Shown: piece after piece, positions 36,720 through 63,007 of the stretch | Layout: each line of letters starts with the position of its first letter | Numbering within the stretch: position 1 is the stretch's first letter | DNA from: an archaeon UBA543 | GTDB lineage: Archaea > Undinarchaeota > Undinarchaeia > Undinarchaeales > UBA543 | NCBI GenBank assembly: GCA_002502135.1 | Contig: DAPM01000011.1 | Location: forward strand, 7,736 to 71,735 | DNA length: 64,000 nt | Reading direction: 5' to 3' | Notes under the pieces: generated by a model | Database searches by the model: none | What the model was told of the DNA's origin: nothing | What the model saw: the letters and a program-made list of their open reading frames with translations, nothing else | Position numbers and translations under genes: made by a program

Positions 36720-36760
36720 TTTAGTAATTGTAAATGAGTAGCCACGAGCAGCTCCAAACC

Positions 36761-36914
36761 TCTGCTGATATTTGAATTGTTGAAATTGGTTAATTGGTTC
36801 TTGACTGGCGCTCCAGAGTGCAGCGCGTACTGCATGAAGCTCCATTCGCTTCGCGAAGGGGCTTAAACAATTCAACTGAAGTTGGTTCAAGCTGTCTGAG
36901 TTAGTTACCTATGA
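36761..36914 (+). mobile_element. ~154-bp repeated structured element, copy A
   Basis: The 88-nt core 36801-36888 is identical at 81/88 positions, without gaps, to 61608-61695. The left arm ctgctgatatttgaattg and right arm tgagtta are shared. It is bracketed by a 26-nt direct repeat (36735-36760 and 36915-40). The strand is inferred from G:U pairs. Confidence 0.7.
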
Positions 36915-36915
36915 T

Positions 36916-36991
36916 TGGTAGCCCCGAGCAGATTCGAACTGCTGTCCCAAGCTCCAGGGGCTCGGATGATTGACCACTACACCACGGGGCT
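36916..36991 (-). tRNA. tRNA-Gln (anticodon CTG), CCA encoded
   Basis: Minus strand reads AGCCCCG TG GTGTAGTGGTCAATCAT C CGAGC CCCTGGA GCTTG GGAC AGCAG TTCGAAT CTGCT CGGGGCT A CCA. It has an A1:U72 pair as in archaeal tRNA-Gln. Position 33 is C rather than U. Confidence 0.8.
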
Positions 36992-39457: not shown

Positions 39458-41512
39458 ATGCGGGGGAGAATTGTAATCATTGCACTATTATTTCTAATAA
39501 TCTTATCCAGCCCAGTCTTTGCAGCTTCAGAAGTCAAGACATACCGCGATTCTGAATACACTTACCAATCTGAATACTTCACAGATGGCGGAACAATTTA
39601 CATTCTGGCCTCAAATTCTGTCACCTGTTGTGATGACATTACTGCAACAATTTCAGTAAACAATGTTGATAAGAGCACAATCACCCTGAAAGACGAAGGC
39701 AATGGCTTTTACAAAGGAAACTTCAAAATAAATTCTGAAATCACAGCTGGTTTTGTTCAAATGGCAAACAGCGAACAAGCCACAATCCAGGTCGAGTTCA
39801 CTCCAATCTACAAGCGCAGTTCAAGCACAACAGCCTACTACATCAAACCAAAATCAACAGAACTAACTGCAGAATTGAAAGACTATGCAACTCTTTCTTG
39901 GGATGAAATCTCCCCAGACATAGCACTTTCACACTACAACATTTACAGAAGCACTGAAGAGCTCACAGACGCCAACAAAAAGCTTGCAGACACTTTCACA
40001 ACAGCAGTTGATGAATACGAAGACTCCACAACAAGAGATGGAAAAACCTACTGCTACGGTGTTTCTGCAGTTGATATTGCAGGCAACATTGCAGAATTGT
40101 CAAATGTGGAATGCCTTGACCTTGAAGATGAAACAGCACCAAGCTCAGTAACTGGTTTGACAGCAACTCCAATTCAAGGTGGCAGAATCAAAATCTCCTG
40201 GAAGGAATCTGAAGACAATGTAGCTGTAAATGAATACAATATTTACAAATTAAAAGAAGAGGATGATGAAATTGATCTTGACGATCCTGATGAAGCAGTT
40301 TTGGAAACCGAATACATTGACGAGAAACTGAAAGACGGCAAAACCTATTATTATACAGTCTCTGCTGTTGACACTTCTGAAAACATCGGCCCTGCGTCTC
40401 CAGTAGTCAGCGCAGTTTCTGACAAAAATCCTCCAACCGAATCTGCTTTAACTGCAGAAAGACAGAGGGGCGGAAAAGTTGTTCTTTCCTGGACAGAAAT
40501 CTATGGCGCAGAGTATTATTATTTGTATGCAGGAACTTCAAAAGCACTAGAAGTCGAGCCTGTAGTTCTTTCAGGAGACACACTAACTCACACCCATTTC
40601 CCGCAAGCTGAAACTTTCTATGCTGTTTCTGCTGTGGATTCTGCAGGAAACGAAGCAGAATTATCAAACATATTAAGCATTACCCCAGATTCAGAGCCTC
40701 CAAAATCAGTAACTGGCTTGTCAGCAGTTGCAAATCCTGATAACAGCATCACACTCACTTGGACAGAATCAACTGACAAAGACTTCAAGCAATACAACAT
40801 TTACCGCTCAGCTGTTTCCAGCATCTCATTCTCAGTTCCAATTAAAATCACAACCCTCAACTCTTTCACAGACAGGGAACTAAACCACAATCAACAGTAT
40901 TTCTATGTTGTCCGCGCAGAAGACGAAGCAGGAAATGAAGATAATAATCAAAGATCTGTTAGTGAAACAGCAAGAGACCTCAACTTAAAATTGGAAGTAG
41001 TTCAGCCATCTGCAGAAATTCGAGTTTCACAAGATATGCTGGTGGTTGCTGGAATCACAGACCCAGATGCAATTATGAGCATTTCAGGAATCACAGAAGA
41101 CATTTTAATTGACGACAATGGCGGTTTCCTTACAATCATTCCACTTATCTCAGGTGAGCAGGAAATTATTGTCAGAGCTACTGATCCAAATGACAATGTG
41201 AAAACAGAAATCCTGAAAGTGAATAACAGAAAAGATGAAATCAGCGCAGATGCTGAAACAATCAGAAAAGAACACCTGAACAAGCTCAAACTCCTAAGTG
41301 AAACAGCACCTGGCCAAATTCAGCAGTTGAATATTGAAGCATCTGAAGATATTCTAAAACAAGCAGATCCTGAAGTGAATATTGGTGAAGTGTCCCAGAT
41401 TACAGGATTAGTAACTGGAAGCAGAGGTGGAATCTGGTCTTCTATAATCGGTTTTATTTTCGTAGGTGGAATAATTGCAGTGTTGTATGGTAAAAAGAAG
41501 GGATTGTTTTAG
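39458..41512 (+). CDS. secreted surface protein with repeated fibronectin type III-like domains and C-terminal TM anchor
   Basis: 684 aa with a signal peptide. At least four repeats have the pattern W..S......YNIYRS...Y.Y.VSAVD..GN. It ends with a hydrophobic C-terminus plus KKKG. Confidence 0.7.
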   Translation: MRGRIVIIALLFLIILSSPVFAASEVKTYRDSEYTYQSEYFTDGGTIYILASNSVTCCDDITATISVNNVDKSTITLKDEGNGFYKGNFKINSEITAGFVQMANSEQATIQVEFTPIYKRSSSTTAYYIKPKSTELTAELKDYATLSWDEISPDIALSHYNIYRSTEELTDANKKLADTFTTAVDEYEDSTTRDGKTYCYGVSAVDIAGNIAELSNVECLDLEDETAPSSVTGLTATPIQGGRIKISWKESEDNVAVNEYNIYKLKEEDDEIDLDDPDEAVLETEYIDEKLKDGKTYYYTVSAVDTSENIGPASPVVSAVSDKNPPTESALTAERQRGGKVVLSWTEIYGAEYYYLYAGTSKALEVEPVVLSGDTLTHTHFPQAETFYAVSAVDSAGNEAELSNILSITPDSEPPKSVTGLSAVANPDNSITLTWTESTDKDFKQYNIYRSAVSSISFSVPIKITTLNSFTDRELNHNQQYFYVVRAEDEAGNEDNNQRSVSETARDLNLKLEVVQPSAEIRVSQDMLVVAGITDPDAIMSISGITEDILIDDNGGFLTIIPLISGEQEIIVRATDPNDNVKTEILKVNNRKDEISADAETIRKEHLNKLKLLSETAPGQIQQLNIEASEDILKQADPEVNIGEVSQITGLVTGSRGGIWSSIIGFIFVGGIIAVLYGKKKGLF

Positions 41513-41514
41513 TT

Positions 41515-41543
41515 CTCCGCGGATATTTGAATTGGTTAAATTT
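41515..41543 (+). repeat. solo left end of the 154-bp element (copy C, truncated)
   Basis: ctccgcGgatatttgaattggttaaattt matches 61567-61595 at 28/29 positions. It lies in the 41-nt gap between two convergent genes. Confidence 0.7.
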
Positions 41544-41553
41544 TTAGAATAGC

Positions 41554-43482
41554 TCAATTTCCTGTAAATTTCGGCCTTCGTGACAATTCTCTTGGCAAAC
41601 TCAATTTCTTGAAAACCATTCCCTCACACTTTTTCTGAATTTCTGCAACTAAATCAGCCAAACTCATATCAACAACTTTTCCAGAACTCCTAACTCTCAC
41701 AGGAATCTTCTTTGCTTTCAATTCCTTATCCCCAATCACAAGAGTATAAGGCACCCACTCTTTCTCACTTCCAGAAATTTTCTTCCCAACACTCTCGCCC
41801 CTGTCATCAATATCAACACGAATATTGGCTTTCTCTAGTTCCTCAGCAATTTTCAAGCAAGCTTTATTATGCGAATCTGAAACAGCGCAAACCCTAACCT
41901 GAGTTGGCGACAGCCACAACGGTAGAATTCCTTTCTTACCCTTCTGCTGATCCATATACGCTTTCTCAAGCAGAGCGTAAATTGCTCGTTCAATAGCTCC
42001 GCCTGGTGACATGTGCAAAATTACTGGCCTGTGCTCCTTACCATCCTCACCAATATAATTCAAATCATAAGTATCTCCATTTTCAACATCAATCTGATCA
42101 GTAGTCAATGTCGCTGCCTTATCCAAAGCATCAACAAAATTAATTTCATACTTCATAACAAAATAAAAGAATCTCTTATCCCAAACTTCAACCAGCATTG
42201 GCCTGCCCCATTTCTTTGCAAGATCTTTAATTACTTCAGGATGCTCATCTTCAAATTCCTTAACCCATCGCATTGCAAATTCCAAATCATCCTTCTTGTC
42301 AAAGCCATATCCTTTCAGAACTTTCTCAGCAAGATTAAACCTAACTAAAAGTTCTTCACTTGCCTGCTTCACATCAGTACATAGTGCATGCACATCAGGC
42401 ATTGTAAATGCTCTCAATCGCCTCAAACCAGCTAATTCTCCTCTTTTCTCAGTCCTGAAGCTGTATCTGGTCATCTCATAAATCTTCAAAGGCATATTCT
42501 TGTACGAAATCGTAGCATCGTGCGCCATCAGGAACTGCCCAAAACACGCTGAAAACCGCAGGAAACACTCCTTATTTGGGGTTTTTACAATATATTGTCG
42601 CGCTGGGAAGCGGTTAAGGTACTTTTTCAGCACAGGGTGCTCGTAATCATACATTATCGGTGCTTCCACTTCCATCCCACCATAATCTACAACTTCTCTA
42701 GTGGTATAATCCTCAAGCAAACCTTTAATCAGTCTGCCATTCGGGTAAAACCTTAAATTCCCAGGATCACTTCCAGGCTCGTAATCAGCAATTTCCAGTT
42801 TCTTCATCAATTCAATATGTGGAGGCTGTTTGTCAACAGTGCGATTCTTTGCTAATTCGTACAAGCACATCTTCTCCAGCTTTGGATATTTTTCAAAATT
42901 ATAACCCTTAATTTTTCCGTTCTCAATTTTGATTTCATGCCTCTTTCCTGTTGGCTCTAAAATATAGAATTTGGACTTCAGCAATTCCTCTTTCTTCACA
43001 GCTTCAGAAACTGCCTGTTCCTCAGCTCCCTCTTTCTCAAGTCCAGGCTCACCACCAGCGCGAATAATTCTGGACCACTCACTAAGCGGATGACCCTTGC
43101 ACTTCATTTCAAATTCCTTATACCAGCCAAATGGACTTAGCTTGACTTTCAATCCTTTCTTCTCAAGTCCATCTTTTACTAAATTCTGAATTTCAAGAGC
43201 AGTTCTCGGCTTTGACGGCTTTGCGCCATAAAGCAAGTGAACATACGGATAGAAAACAACATTCTTGGTCTTGAGCTGGTCGGAAATCTTAATCAAATCA
43301 GCAACAGCTTTCTTTGCAACTTCCTTTTCATGACCTTCATCCTCAACTTCAGTTGCAAATCTGGCAAACAAACACTCTTCCATCCTGCCTTTCTTCTGGT
43401 CGTCTTTCAGCTCCCCGGCTAGTTTTGTCTTCTTCTTCGCCTGCCATTGCACGTAGTCAACATGCTGAATGAGCTCCTTCAT
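41554..43482 (-). CDS. thrS: threonyl-tRNA synthetase (archaeal type with N-terminal DTD-like editing domain)
   Basis: 642 aa with an archaeal-type N-terminal editing region, a class II core and a C-terminal anticodon-binding domain. Confidence 0.88.
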   Translation of the reverse strand: MKELIQHVDYVQWQAKKKTKLAGELKDDQKKGRMEECLFARFATEVEDEGHEKEVAKKAVADLIKISDQLKTKNVVFYPYVHLLYGAKPSKPRTALEIQNLVKDGLEKKGLKVKLSPFGWYKEFEMKCKGHPLSEWSRIIRAGGEPGLEKEGAEEQAVSEAVKKEELLKSKFYILEPTGKRHEIKIENGKIKGYNFEKYPKLEKMCLYELAKNRTVDKQPPHIELMKKLEIADYEPGSDPGNLRFYPNGRLIKGLLEDYTTREVVDYGGMEVEAPIMYDYEHPVLKKYLNRFPARQYIVKTPNKECFLRFSACFGQFLMAHDATISYKNMPLKIYEMTRYSFRTEKRGELAGLRRLRAFTMPDVHALCTDVKQASEELLVRFNLAEKVLKGYGFDKKDDLEFAMRWVKEFEDEHPEVIKDLAKKWGRPMLVEVWDKRFFYFVMKYEINFVDALDKAATLTTDQIDVENGDTYDLNYIGEDGKEHRPVILHMSPGGAIERAIYALLEKAYMDQQKGKKGILPLWLSPTQVRVCAVSDSHNKACLKIAEELEKANIRVDIDDRGESVGKKISGSEKEWVPYTLVIGDKELKAKKIPVRVRSSGKVVDMSLADLVAEIQKKCEGMVFKKLSLPRELSRRPKFTGN

Positions 43483-57217: not shown

Positions 57218-57292
57218 TGGCAGGCCCGCCGAGAGTTGAACTCGGGTCTGTAGCTCCGCAAGCTACCATGATATCCACTACACTACGGGCCC
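57218..57292 (-). tRNA. tRNA-Arg (anticodon GCG), CCA encoded
   Basis: Minus strand reads GGGCCCG TA GTGTAGTGGATATCAT G GTAGC TTGCGGA GCTAC AGAC CCGAG TTCAACT CTCGG CGGGCCT G CCA. Confidence 0.85.
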
Positions 57293-57404
57293 ATTTTCCA
57301 ATGACGCTTGGCATACGAGTTTTTCACACTTAACCAAGCGGATACGAGCCGCGCAGCGGCCTCTCGCCCTCCGTGAGAAGACGGAGCTACTACTACGGGC
57401 CCAT
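57293..57404 (-). other. duplicate of the tRNA-Arg(GCG) 5' end followed by a ~95-nt GC-rich three-hairpin block
   Basis: ATGGGCCCGTAGT occurs at 57404-57392 and again at 57294-57282. Hairpins lie at 57369-57386, 57348-57360 and 57305-57340. There is no D-loop GG, T-arm or 3' acceptor, so it is not a tRNA. Confidence 0.6.
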
Positions 57405-57969: not shown

Positions 57970-58047
57970 TACCACAGTTACCCTCTCCTTATCCCAATAT
58001 TTTAGTAACCAAACTTTATTAAGTTTTGTATAGTGGAAAATAAAAAG

Positions 58048-60080: not shown

Positions 60081-60190
60081 TGGTGGGCCCAAGGGGATTT
60101 GAACCCCCGATTTGCAGCTTAGAAGGCTTGCGGAAGGCGAAGAAAAAACTCGCGCCCCTTGCCGCCTTATCCAGACTAGGCTATAGGCCC
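60081..60190 (-). tRNA. tRNA-Arg (anticodon TCT) with 32-nt intron in the anticodon stem (non-canonical position), CCA encoded
   Basis: Exon 1 (60190-60160) reads GGGCCTA TA GCCT AGTCTGGATA AGGC G GCA. The intron (60159-60128) reads AGGGGCGCGAGTTTTTTCTTCGCCTTCCGCAA. Exon 2 (60127-60081) reads GC CTTCTAA GCTGC AAATC GGGGG TTCAAAT CCCCT TGGGCCC A CCA. Splicing restores the stem GCAGC/GCTGC. Confidence 0.75.
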
Positions 60191-60930
60191 ATTTTTGTAA
60201 TAACAAAAGGGCTTAACTCCCTTTTTAATATTTTGTATCGCTGTTTTATTGAAGTATTTGGGGGTACAAAGCCATATCTCTTCCATATTTTATACTTTGT
60301 TAAATATACTGGATTCTTAAAACCAATTAAGTCTATCCATTTTTCTACGCGTGCACATCCTTCAACGCAAATAGAATATGCCACAGTGTTATTTCCCCCA
60401 ACTCTTTTATGTAATCTTGTAAAATATTTTATTCCTAATTTGTCTAACATTTTGCACATATCTTCAACCAAAATTTTAGCAACACATTTAATCTGAATTC
60501 TTGGGTAGTTATGATATTTTCTTTTAAATTCAATATATTTCCCATATCTCTTATCAAAATTTAAACAACCATCACCATCAGCAAAACCTCGCAAAAACGA
60601 AGCTAAAACTTCAGTATCCTCACTTTCTCTTATCTGTTTTGGAACTCGCATAGTGTATGTTTTATTACCTGGTTTAAAACCAAGATTATTAAAAAAATCC
60701 CCTATCTTTCTATCACAAGTATAAAATCCATAGACACTATTGCTCGTTTTTTCATGAACTCTCAAGATTATTCCAAAGTTATTTAAAAATATTTTTGTTA
60801 AATGATTATCATAGTACTCTCTATCTTCTGTAATATTTCCCCAGATGCAGACATATGCTTTTTGAAGGCAACCATCTGCGCAAAAGATTCCACAGATTTC
60901 TGCTAATTCTGGAGATATTTCAGTTTTCAT
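60181..60930 (-). CDS. free-standing LAGLIDADG homing endonuclease (double-motif)
   Basis: 249 aa and very AT-rich. The two LAGLIDADG-type motifs are GIFCADGCL and LRGFADGDGCL. The last four codons (ATG GGC CTA TAG) are supplied by the first 10 nt of the tRNA-Arg(TCT) gene. Confidence 0.8.
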   Translation of the reverse strand: MKTEISPELAEICGIFCADGCLQKAYVCIWGNITEDREYYDNHLTKIFLNNFGIILRVHEKTSNSVYGFYTCDRKIGDFFNNLGFKPGNKTYTMRVPKQIRESEDTEVLASFLRGFADGDGCLNFDKRYGKYIEFKRKYHNYPRIQIKCVAKILVEDMCKMLDKLGIKYFTRLHKRVGGNNTVAYSICVEGCARVEKWIDLIGFKNPVYLTKYKIWKRYGFVPPNTSIKQRYKILKRELSPFVITKMGL

Positions 60931-61488: not shown

Positions 61489-61566
61489 CCTTTCAGAACT
61501 AGTTGAGGGTTGTTTATAAAGACTATCCTAAACCACTTTAGAACTTTTTTTAGCAATCCTTCATAA

Positions 61567-61719
61567 CTCCGCTGATATTTGAATTGGTTAAATTTGTGAA
61601 TTTATCATTGACTGGCGCTCCGGAGTGTGGCGCGTACTGCATGAAGCCCTATTCGCTTCGCGAAAGGGCTTAAACAATTCAACTGAAATTGGTTCGATTT
61701 GTTGAGTTAACTGTTTTAA
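61567..61719 (+). mobile_element. ~154-bp repeated structured element, copy B
   Basis: The core 61608-61695 is 81/88 identical to 36801-36888. It is bracketed by a 25-nt direct repeat (61542-61566 and 61720-61744, 23/25 identical). Confidence 0.7.
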
Positions 61720-61730
61720 AACTTTTTTTA

Positions 61731-61744
61731 ACAATCCTTTATAA
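61731..61744 (+). promoter_or_regulatory. BRE/TATA-like promoter of the nucleotidyltransferase gene (leaderless spacing)
   Basis: acaatcc tttataa ends 24 nt before the ATG at 61769. It lies inside the right-hand direct repeat of element copy B. Confidence 0.4.
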
Positions 61745-61768: not shown

Positions 61769-63007
61769 ATGATTTCAAAAGCATTGATACTAGCAGCTGG
61801 CGACAACAAGAGAATGAAACCGCTCTCAGATTTGAGAAATAAGTCGCTCCTGCCAGTAGCTAACAAGGCCATAATTTCACGCAGTCTGGCTTCTCTAAAG
61901 CAGGCTGGAATAACTGAAGCAATCCTAATAGTCAATCCTAAAAATGAAGTTGAAAAACAGCTTGGAGCAGAGCACGAGGGAATTAAATTATCTTATACAG
62001 TTCAGCCAGAACCGCTAGGCACCGCACATGCAATCAGCATGGCAAAGGATCAGATTTCTGAAGATTTCTTAGTCCTAAACGGTGATGATTTCTGCAATTC
62101 TGAGCATCTGAAAAATCTATTATCTTCTCACAAAACCAAAGCAACTGTTTCTGTAATTAAAAAAACAGATCCTAAAGGTCTTGGAGTTGTTGAAGTTGAA
62201 AACAATCTTGTTAAAAGTCTGGTGGAAAAACCAGAATCAGCAGAAGGCGAGCATTTTGTCAATATTGGAATTTACGCATTCTCTCCTGAAATATTCGCAA
62301 CAATTGAAACCCTTGAAAAATCTGAGCGTGGTGAATATGAAATCACTGATGCAATAACAAAACTCATTCCTGACGGAGTTTCTGCAATCACAGCAGACTC
62401 TTGGCTTCCAATAAATTATCCTTGGGATCTTCTAATCGCTAACAAACAATTCATTGACGAAATTCCTGAAGATATCAAAACAGAATTTGATCATGGTGTT
62501 ACTGTAAAAGGAAAACTAGTAGCAGGAGCGGGTACTTTTATCAAAGCAGGAGTCTATATTGAAGGCCCTGTACTGATTGGCAAGAACTGTACAATCGGAC
62601 CAAATGCGTTCCTACGAGCTTACACCTGCATTGGCGACAACTGTAAAATCGGTCAGGGAGTTGAAGTCAAGAATTCGATAATCATGGATGGAACTTGCGT
62701 TCCTCATCTTTCTTATATTGGCGATTCTGTAATTGGTAGAAATGTTAACTTCGGAGCAGGGGCCATAATGACTAACCTGCGCCACGACGATCAGAATGTT
62801 CTTGTTTATGTTAAAGGCGTGCAAACTGATTCAGGCCTCAGAAAACTTGGAGCAATAGTTGGCGACACTGTCAAATTCGGTTCAAATGTTGTTGTAACTC
62901 CTGGAAAAAAGATCGGTTCTGGTTCAAGAATCTGGCCAGGCCTTGTGGTTTACAAGGATGTTGAAGAGAATTCTGAATATAAAGGTCAGGCCAGTGAAAT
63001 AAAGTAG
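61769..63007 (+). CDS. bifunctional sugar-1-phosphate nucleotidylyltransferase / left-handed beta-helix acetyltransferase (GlmU-like)
   Basis: 412 aa with N-terminus LILAAGDNKRMKP and GTAHA. The C-terminus has hexapeptide repeats (IG.N..IG.G..V). Confidence 0.82.
   Translation: MISKALILAAGDNKRMKPLSDLRNKSLLPVANKAIISRSLASLKQAGITEAILIVNPKNEVEKQLGAEHEGIKLSYTVQPEPLGTAHAISMAKDQISEDFLVLNGDDFCNSEHLKNLLSSHKTKATVSVIKKTDPKGLGVVEVENNLVKSLVEKPESAEGEHFVNIGIYAFSPEIFATIETLEKSERGEYEITDAITKLIPDGVSAITADSWLPINYPWDLLIANKQFIDEIPEDIKTEFDHGVTVKGKLVAGAGTFIKAGVYIEGPVLIGKNCTIGPNAFLRAYTCIGDNCKIGQGVEVKNSIIMDGTCVPHLSYIGDSVIGRNVNFGAGAIMTNLRHDDQNVLVYVKGVQTDSGLRKLGAIVGDTVKFGSNVVVTPGKKIGSGSRIWPGLVVYKDVEENSEYKGQASEIK

Follow-up and report, generated by a model that had tools for sequence, protein, structure and literature searches.

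We analysed a 64-kb stretch of DNA (the window; 40% G+C) from a marine DPANN archaeon, placed in Candidatus Undinarchaeales by the proteins encoded around the element, in which a gene for an NTP-transferase (ATG at 61769) is preceded by a pair of near-identical 25-nt direct repeats. The repeats bracket one copy, B, of a non-coding element of about 145 nt, of which a second full copy, A, lies elsewhere in the window. L-numbers (L079, L087 and so on) are labels for the related contigs and genomes that were compared with the window. Locus B is composed as follows:

61537..61566, plus strand: left copy of the duplicated target (core 61542-61566; 61537-61541 a possible extension)
61567..61711, plus strand: element copy B (169.5 bits with covariance model R1; alignments A2/A3; pair counts), whose left end is CTCCGCTGAT; an AT-rich arm comes next, then three GC-rich hairpins, then a right arm containing GAAATTGGTTC
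61612-61624, 61626-61643 and 61645-61672, plus strand: hairpins H1, H2 and H3 of copy B
61712..61719, plus strand: junction filler tgttttaa, which separates the conserved right end of copy B from the right repeat
61715..61744, plus strand: right copy of the duplicated target (core 61720-61744), with the B-recognition element (BRE)/TATA promoter of the NTP-transferase gene

The two cores agree at 23 of 25 positions (two mismatches) and start 178 nt apart. An earlier note on this DNA, made from the sequence alone, had given the same positions, identity and spacing, together with 180 nt for copy A, and our measurements reproduce them. Used as a pattern with up to three mismatches, the 25-mer has no match in the 64 kb besides this pair, against an expectation of 0 from 100 shuffles; it is unique to the pair in the window. 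Local alignment of flank against flank, with 80 nt on either side, reaches a score of 45 that none of 500 shuffles equalled, and lengthens the repeat to 61537-61566 and 61715-61744 (27/30). The filler at 61712-61719 is either a ragged tail of the element or belongs to the duplication, as a stretch that has diverged further.

Within the right repeat, a TATA-like tttataa (61738-61744) stands 24 nt ahead of the ATG, as the earlier note had pointed out. The 25-mer, with its TATA 24 nt before the ATG, is conserved at the orthologous gene in L088, L079, L083 and L082. Judging from this conservation, the right repeat is the functional promoter of the NTP-transferase gene, and the locus B repeat as a whole is target DNA taken from that promoter. 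In the closest relative, L088 (NTP-transferase 95% identical in amino acids), the 25-mer is single and the element is absent, and the same holds for L079 (76%). Around the 25-mer of L079, ccactttag on the left corresponds to the bases that precede the window's left repeat, and agccaaatc on the right to those that follow the window's right repeat. The right repeat keeps the state found in the orthologs; both differences sit in the left copy and are transitions (A to G, and T to C in the TATA box) that are derived relative to all or most orthologs. Seven assemblies, made from different samples, all have copy B in identical form.

The left repeat had also been read as placing a promoter that points into the element. 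This seems doubtful, since its TATA box is mutated (ttcataa) and abuts the first base of the element, so that a start about 25 nt past ttcataa would skip the 5' strand of the closing helix described below.

Both relatives without the element at locus B carry GC-rich imperfect hairpins of 62-64 nt there (L088:14-83 and L079:9878-9941), unrelated to it and without a match in Rfam. They lie between divergent promoters, which is the place of the element in L083 and L082, and the apex of the L088 hairpin, GTTCGCTTC, resembles the apex of H3.

Insertion at the 3' end of a tRNA-Gln gene

Copy A is 85-86% identical to copy B and adjoins a tRNA gene:

36738..36759, minus strand: left repeat of copy A, the displaced original 3' end of tRNA-Gln from the T-loop to the discriminator +1, decayed to 18/22
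36760..36904, plus strand: element copy A (171.6 bits with covariance model R1)
36905..36917, plus strand: junction filler that joins the right end of copy A to the right repeat (gttacctatgatt gg region)
36916..36991, minus strand: intact tRNA-Gln(CUG), whose last 22 nt (36918-36939) are the right repeat of copy A

The repeats, gtagccacgagcagctccaaac (36738-36759) and gtagccccgagcagattcgaac (36918-36939), are spaced by 180 nt, and the alignment of their flanks scores 25, a value reached in none of 500 shuffles. The earlier note had not recognized that this repeat is the 3' end of tRNA-Gln. The tRNA gene is an ARAGORN call and is not listed by the Rfam tRNA model at gathering score. In L087, whose HD/YjeF_N protein is 86% identical in amino acids, an uninterrupted tRNA-Gln ends in ...GTTCGAATCTGCTCGGGGCTA and the HD start codon follows 13 nt on. 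Read along its minus strand, the window has a full tRNA-Gln, then CA with 12 nt of filler, then the element and GTTTGGAGCTGCTCGTGGCTAC, after which come the native trailer and the start codon known from L087; the native tRNA-Gln trailer and the HD/YjeF_N start codon (36719) thus adjoin the left repeat. All four differences between the repeats are held by the displaced copy, which retains the trailer known from L084 and L085. The last bases of the filler give tRNA-Gln an encoded CCA that the relatives L087, L084 and L085 do not have.

Since relatives hold single-copy empty sites at A (L087) and at B (L088 and L079), both loci are insertions that duplicated 22 and 25-30 nt of target, and the earlier proposal that the bracketing repeats are target-derived stands. 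The polarity of decay supports insertion as well, as the promoter-side and tRNA-side copies keep the ortholog state and the displaced copies hold all the changes.

Insertion A moved the HD/YjeF_N gene and tRNA-Gln 180 nt apart. In L087 the gene begins only 13 nt past the tRNA, which leaves no room for a promoter, so that co-transcription of the two is probable there. The left arm of copy A (TTCAAATATC, minus strand), which is about 50 nt from the ATG, is a possible outward promoter in the present arrangement. Upstream of HD/YjeF_N, where the window has copy A, L085 (9885-9950) and L086 (790-870) have a GC-rich hairpin of ggtgga/ccttcc-type repeats.

Further copies, a fragment and empty sites

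The element is known from six full copies (A, B, C, D, L083e and L082e) at no fewer than four distinct loci in at least four genomes. A search of a metagenome collection, with a pattern of fixed loop bases and with transitions allowed in the stems, returned locus B again (L077) and one new copy, C (L078:5837-5981). The other three were found in the neighbourhoods of orthologous proteins: copy D (L079:6294-6489) adjoins tRNA-Arg(CCU) in L079, L080 and L081, 12 nt beyond the tRNA, and L083e and L082e lie in the same intergenic region as copy B in two more distant genomes. The window itself has the empty site for copy D and a solo fragment:

58030..58046, no strand assigned: empty site for copy D, just 3' of tRNA-Arg(CCU)
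41515..41543, plus strand: solo 29-nt left-end fragment, 28/29 identical to copy B (covariance model 28 bits, E 0.006)

Both flanks of copy D are kept in the window, the left one as ccaaactttattaa (the neighbour's promoter) and the right one as aaaataaa plus tRNA-Arg. The comparison of filled and empty site leaves 10 unaligned bases, which limits the duplication at D to about 10 nt or less. The inserted block runs from CTCTGCTG to GTTTAATTTT, in agreement with the limits of similarity among all copies. For copy C an empty site was not found, gene order being different in the relatives.

The 29-nt fragment fills a 41-nt spacer between two convergent genes, for an fn3-domain protein and for threonyl-tRNA synthetase (ThrRS), that overlap in L084 and L085. 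In the window (41510-41556) it is flanked by TTTTAG and TTTTTAG; the counterparts in the relatives are L084:4183-4186 and L085:866-882.

Copies A and D are 93% identical over 84 nt in hosts whose proteins are about 75% identical, which indicates that sequence as well as structure is constrained. Copy B is 86-88% identical to its paralogs A and C and at most 78% identical to its positional counterparts L083e and L082e. The gene to the left of the element points away from it, with its start codon 39-79 nt from the left end; in C, D, L083e and L082e, 16-33 nt separate that end from the TATA box of this divergent neighbour. On the right there is either the promoter of an outward gene (B, C, L083e and L082e) or a tRNA 3' end (A and D). 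The 5' flanks (AAAC, ATAA, CACC, GGTA, CCCT, AAAT and AGTT) have no common motif.

A covariance model built from the six copies, when run on about 290 kb of related sequence, found nothing further except the 29-nt fragment and a short variant in L091. In a genome collection, the 18-mer GCGCGTACTGCATGAAGC gave 67 chance matches in high-GC bacteria and no real one. Within the window only tRNAs reach the Rfam gathering score, and Rfam returned nothing credible around B at E<=10, nor in L083, L087 and L088 at E<=0.1. Three patterns run on a viral collection found nothing real, the phage and plasmid collections held no match to the element, and no Y1 gene was seen. A published description of an interspersed repeat family in Undinarchaeota was not found either.

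Ends and secondary structure of the element

The left end, CTCYGCTGA, is sharp in every copy and in the fragment. There are no terminal inverted repeats (TIRs): the two ends, CTCYGCTGA... and ...GAGTTA, have at most CTC/GAG in common. A longer closing stem or TIR of TTGAATTGGTTAA and TTAAACAATTCAA (columns 13-23/114-124) was considered and discarded, being 71% paired and broken without compensation in L082e and L083e. Between copies A and B all seven differences in the 88-nt core are transitions, and the arms differ mostly by transversions.

RNAalifold, applied to the six copies with no prior input, predicts H1 to H3 plus a closing helix, in which GCUGAK near the left end pairs with MUUGGU in the right arm; six of the pairs show compensatory changes. 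In a structure of our own, pairing in the three core hairpins amounts to 92-96%, and the whole tested structure with partners slid gives 33-47%; double changes occur in five pairs, a count that 1 of 500 shuffles equalled. Of 132 cells, 125 pair on the plus strand (17 of them as G.U, including an invariant G.U that closes H2) and 110 on the minus strand. The fold, which different genera have in common, belongs to the plus strand only; neither this strand-specific structure nor the tRNA-Gln origin of the A repeat had been part of the earlier note. Extra hairpins are placed exactly at helix tips, as a 53-54-nt insertion in H3 of copy D and as a 17-bp hairpin that replaces H1 in L082e. Folding z-scores of single sequences, between -0.4 and -2.5, were uninformative.

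H3 contains a mini open reading frame (ORF; MKPHSLREGA and variants, 61641-61673 in the window) whose start (ATG; GTG in L082e), TAA and frame are kept in all six copies, the frame surviving the 54-nt insertion in D and a 6-nt insertion in L082e. All its substitutions are non-synonymous and preserve pairing, so we treat it as a by-product of the hairpin and not as coding. Three other candidates were rejected as well: a hammerhead-like CUGAUGA at the left end (the actual sequence is CUGAUAU or CUGAGYU), a C/D-box reading (the boxes are not conserved) and a tRNA-like left end.

Comparison with known mobile elements

The element matches no described archaeal mobile element, and we file it as a small non-autonomous mobile element of no known family. 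It resembles miniature inverted-repeat transposable elements (MITEs; non-autonomous offshoots of DDE insertion sequences), such as Sulfolobus SM1-4 and those of halobacteria, in being about 150 nt long, non-coding and intergenic, with several copies whose presence is polymorphic between genomes; dispersed and polymorphic copies are documented here by six full copies, one fragment and three comparisons of filled with empty sites. The likeness to DDE-type MITEs ends with the TIRs, as the element has none and no parent insertion sequence (IS) was identified, and with the fixed duplication of 2-10 bp, in place of which there are 22 nt at A, 25-30 nt at B, at most 10 nt at D and no detectable duplication at C, L083e and L082e. 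The earlier note was right that such MITEs leave much shorter duplications than those at A and B. Unlike MITEs, the element has a conserved, strand-specific core of three hairpins.

The IS1634 family is also diverse in archaea. Its members IS1549 and IS1634 likewise produce long and variable direct repeats on insertion, of 8-514 bp, by a mechanism that is not known (PMC2266710). They are autonomous IS of 1.5-2 kb with a DDE transposase and inverted ends, whereas the element has neither transposase nor inverted repeats.

The note had also placed the insertion close to integrase att cores or to casposase-like staggered integration. For casposons part of this likeness holds: they target the 3' end of tRNA genes, including the T-loop region, make staggered nicks and leave duplications longer than those of DDE elements, and copies A and D do lie at tRNA 3' ends. 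However, B, C, L083e and L082e lie at promoters instead, the duplications here are 22 and 25-30 nt and not 14-15 bp, TIRs are missing from both ends, and a Cas1-family casposase was not found among the 66 window ORFs; a casposase-like enzyme is still a possible candidate. Casposase duplicates 15 bp on its target and 3-1802 bp off target (PMC5137440). As for att-type integrative elements, which have the same core at every site, the repeats of A and B are unrelated to each other and four copies have none; an att core is unlikely, considering that the repeats differ between two 86%-identical copies.

Bacterial repetitive extragenic palindromes (REP), together with BIME and REPIN arrays and their REP-associated tyrosine transposases (RAYT; Y1, IS200/IS605-like), are alike in being short, intergenic, mosaic and built of strand-specific hairpins that tolerate G.T pairs. 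The strand specificity typical of REP and PATE elements is found here, with 125/132 cells pairing on the plus strand and 110/132 on the minus strand. Modules are also shared between small families in a REP-like manner, since TTGGTTAARTKTGTGAA is common to the left arm of the element and to a second family, E2. REP/RAYT systems make no target duplication and use a fixed tetranucleotide, whereas the element has no 5' motif and two of its copies have long duplications.

Interpretation and alternative explanations

The analysis shows that the element is polymorphic at three loci, that the repeats originate from the target, that the length of duplication varies, that the left end is sharp and the right end ragged, and that the conserved fold is specific to the plus strand. 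In our preferred reading the 25-mer pair is probably the scar of a recent insertion of a non-coding, non-autonomous mobile element of about 145 nt belonging to Undinarchaeales, its chemistry being less sure. Variable staggered cutting, an RNA-mediated route and template switching are all candidates for the mechanism of insertion. The element lands in the few non-coding places of compact genomes, near promoters and at tRNA gene ends. In the lineage of the window, copy B entered the promoter of the NTP-transferase gene and copy A the 3' end of tRNA-Gln; with 22-30 bp of target on both sides, promoter and tRNA gene were rebuilt, and decay of the displaced copy followed. The target strands may have been opened two to three helical turns apart by a loose ruler, with repair filling the gaps. 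The stagger would be variable (about 10 bp or less at D), as is reported for IS1549/IS1634 and for off-target casposase, and the enzyme would act in trans, encoded outside the window.

Several observations weigh against this interpretation. A long duplication is present in just two of the six copies, and D excludes one of more than about 10 bp; for C, D, L083e and L082e the similarity of the flanks is not above chance (299-479 of 500 shuffles equal it). A duplication of about 25 bp, which the earlier note ascribed to the insertion mechanism, is therefore no constant feature, as it holds for A and B and fails for the other four, so that what the note itself had said would count against it, further copies without flanking duplications, has partly come about. 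Together with the bound at D, the four copies without a repeat rule out a fixed molecular ruler. At L083 and L082 the element sits in the same intergenic region as B without the left repeat, from which it follows that the history of locus B comprises more than one event. The right end is ragged, and at A and B unrelated filler of 8-15 nt follows it, with none at the left junction. With the TTGAATTGGTTAA/TTAAACAATTCAA stem broken, a classical substrate for a DDE enzyme or a casposase is not evident, and a structure specific to the plus strand is what would be expected of an RNA or single-stranded intermediate, not of double-strand cut-and-paste. A partner enzyme of the integrase, casposase or transposase kind, which the note had proposed to look for, was sought in the window; Pfam scans of its 66 ORFs found no transposase, integrase, reverse transcriptase (RT) or Cas1, and thus identified no enzyme. 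The census is also tiny, consisting of the scan of about 290 kb with the covariance model and a metagenome scan that yielded one new copy; the metagenome collection lacked even copy A, which shows that the census is limited by coverage.

One alternative is an RNA-mediated route like that of short interspersed nuclear elements (SINEs), in which a structured plus-strand RNA is copied by an RT at a nicked target or joined to tRNA ends, with variable cleavage of the second strand. Such a route, which we hold to be unlikely, would be in line with the plus-strand-only structure and its 17 G.U cells, with the sharp 5' end and the ragged, filler-bearing 3' end, and with duplications of at most 10, of 22 and of 25-30 nt. 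Also in its favour, the tRNA duplications (A and two E2 copies) have one boundary 0-2 nt from the mature tRNA end, the rebuilt tRNA-Gln gene ends in a CCA that relatives do not encode, and four copies begin 16-33 nt from a divergent TATA box, a possible start of transcription. SINEs and tRNA-primed retroelements of eukaryotes, for which the Neurospora Mauriceville retroplasmid hybrids serve as comparison, resemble the element in combining a structured RNA-like unit with a sharp 5' and a ragged 3' end, variable duplications, tRNA ends and CCA at the junction. However, no RT turned up among the window ORFs, no A- or U-rich tail follows the element, and the only truncated copy retains the 5' end and not the 3' end, no 5'-truncated copies being found. 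The CCA loses weight as an argument for an RNA origin: with a C already at the start of the native trailer, only CA is left to be explained, and three of the five other tRNA genes of the window encode CCA anyway. Moreover, transcription would not be expected of the promoter sequence duplicated at B, and we know of no element of this kind, SINE-like or tRNA-primed, in archaea. The more specific version, in which a structured plus-strand RNA of about 135 nt is copied into DNA and joined at processed tRNA ends and promoter complexes, seems to us quite unlikely; it would leave duplications whose outer edge is at the mature tRNA end.

It is likewise quite unlikely that the copies are artefacts of replication or repair, produced by fork stalling with template switching or by homology-facilitated illegitimate recombination at conserved tRNA genes and promoters. 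A hairpin-rich copy would then be pasted in, and a return upstream of the point of departure would create duplications of arbitrary length. Variable duplications, filler at one junction, strong hairpins, low copy number and targets that are sites of stable protein-DNA complexes would all fit, and the orientation of tRNA-Gln relative to the HD gene is reversed in L084 and L085 compared with the window and L087, so this region has been rearranged among lineages. Against it, at least four independent events and the 29-nt fragment have one and the same left end, exact to the base (CTCYGCTGA), and arms that are conserved across genera (93% between A and D) argue for a dedicated recognition factor. 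A 6-nt microhomology, CTGCTG, at the left junction of A is not the actual join, since CTC intervenes, which also counts against an artefact. Integration by a tyrosine or serine integrase, or of Campbell type, would involve a circle of about 180 nt with the element and a short target copy, the repeats being attL and attR. The 3' end of a tRNA gene is a classical archaeal att location, and the A repeat corresponds to such an end, starting at its T-loop; there is no gap between left repeat and element and filler occurs only on the right, as if filler and repeat had arrived with the element, and the spacing is nearly equal at the two loci (178 and 180 nt). This origin is nevertheless very improbable, given that A and B, with 86%-identical elements, have unrelated repeats and hence no common att core, that C, D, L083e and L082e have no repeats, that the element is 145 nt long and non-coding, that no integrase was found among the window ORFs, and that no related phage, virus or plasmid sequence is in the collections searched; a circle formed by recombination between the repeats could in addition return to the same site only. 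Finally, the element would be scarcely credible as an immobile resident, a small RNA gene or regulatory module inherited vertically next to unrelated local duplications. Residence would agree with the fact that the window, L083 and L082 all have the element in one corresponding intergenic region, ahead of the NTP-transferase gene, with the strong conservation of structure and sequence and with the identity of B in seven assemblies of different samples. However, neither locus A nor locus B has the element in the closest relative, D is present in L079 and not in the window, and the three comparisons of filled and empty sites contradict it, as do the greater similarity of B to the paralogs A and C than to L083e and L082e and the fact that the repeats begin exactly at the left end of the element at both loci.

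Other small hairpin elements

The second small family, E2, is about 92-97 nt long and consists of a GC-rich hairpin CTCCGY..RCGGAG followed by GCTTGGTTAAGTGTGAAA. One E2 copy lies in the window (57282-57404; repeats 57282-57294 and 57392-57404) just upstream of tRNA-Arg(GCG), and another in L079 (13705-13820) just upstream of tRNA-Pro. Both are bracketed by a direct repeat of 12-13 nt (13/13 in the window, 11/12 in L079) that takes in the first 11-12 nt of the tRNA, and the counterpart sites are empty in L079 for tRNA-Arg(GCG) and in L001 for tRNA-Pro. We count this second family in favour of the preferred reading of the main element. A third family, GC-rich and palindromic, has three copies in 21 kb of L079 (5632-5700, 15588-15656 and 18352-18407); two of them are preceded by GAAATTGGTT or GTTGGTTAAATTTGTGAA, and one lies just 3' of tRNA-Arg(GCG) and one upstream of tRNA-His. 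The short variant in L091 (5885-5975, minus strand; 18.6 bits with the covariance model) directly follows the HerA stop codon. It is composed of a GTCCGC..GCGGAC hairpin, then GGGC-A-TTCGC-TTC-GCGAA-GCCC and then TTATTTGAAATTGGTTC, and so has an H3-like hairpin and the motif of the right arm, but no other part of the element.

A LAGLIDADG-like ORF is the only find of its kind among the 66 window ORFs. This 249-aa ORF (60181-60930), with a LAGLIDADG_3 domain, is overlapped at its end by a 107-nt tRNA match (60084-60190); the tRNA presumably contains an intron, and relatives carry a different ORF there.

Significance

The comparisons of filled and empty sites document, at the level of single bases, an active small element that is one of a mosaic of hairpin elements sharing modules. 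Its insertions rebuild the promoter or tRNA gene that they hit, by means of a duplication of 22-30 bp. Long and variable duplications have no accepted mechanism even for IS1549/IS1634, and a 145-nt substrate whose junctions are precisely known, with targets at tRNA ends and promoters, offers a tractable handle on how they arise. The genomes of DPANN archaea, Undinarchaeota among them, are very small, and in genomes so compact these insertions bear on gene expression: A parted HD/YjeF_N from the tRNA that it directly follows in a relative, and B duplicated a promoter. If the RNA-mediated route were true, the element would be the first SINE-like or tRNA-end-targeted retroelement in Archaea, in a DPANN lineage with a genome of less than 1 Mb.

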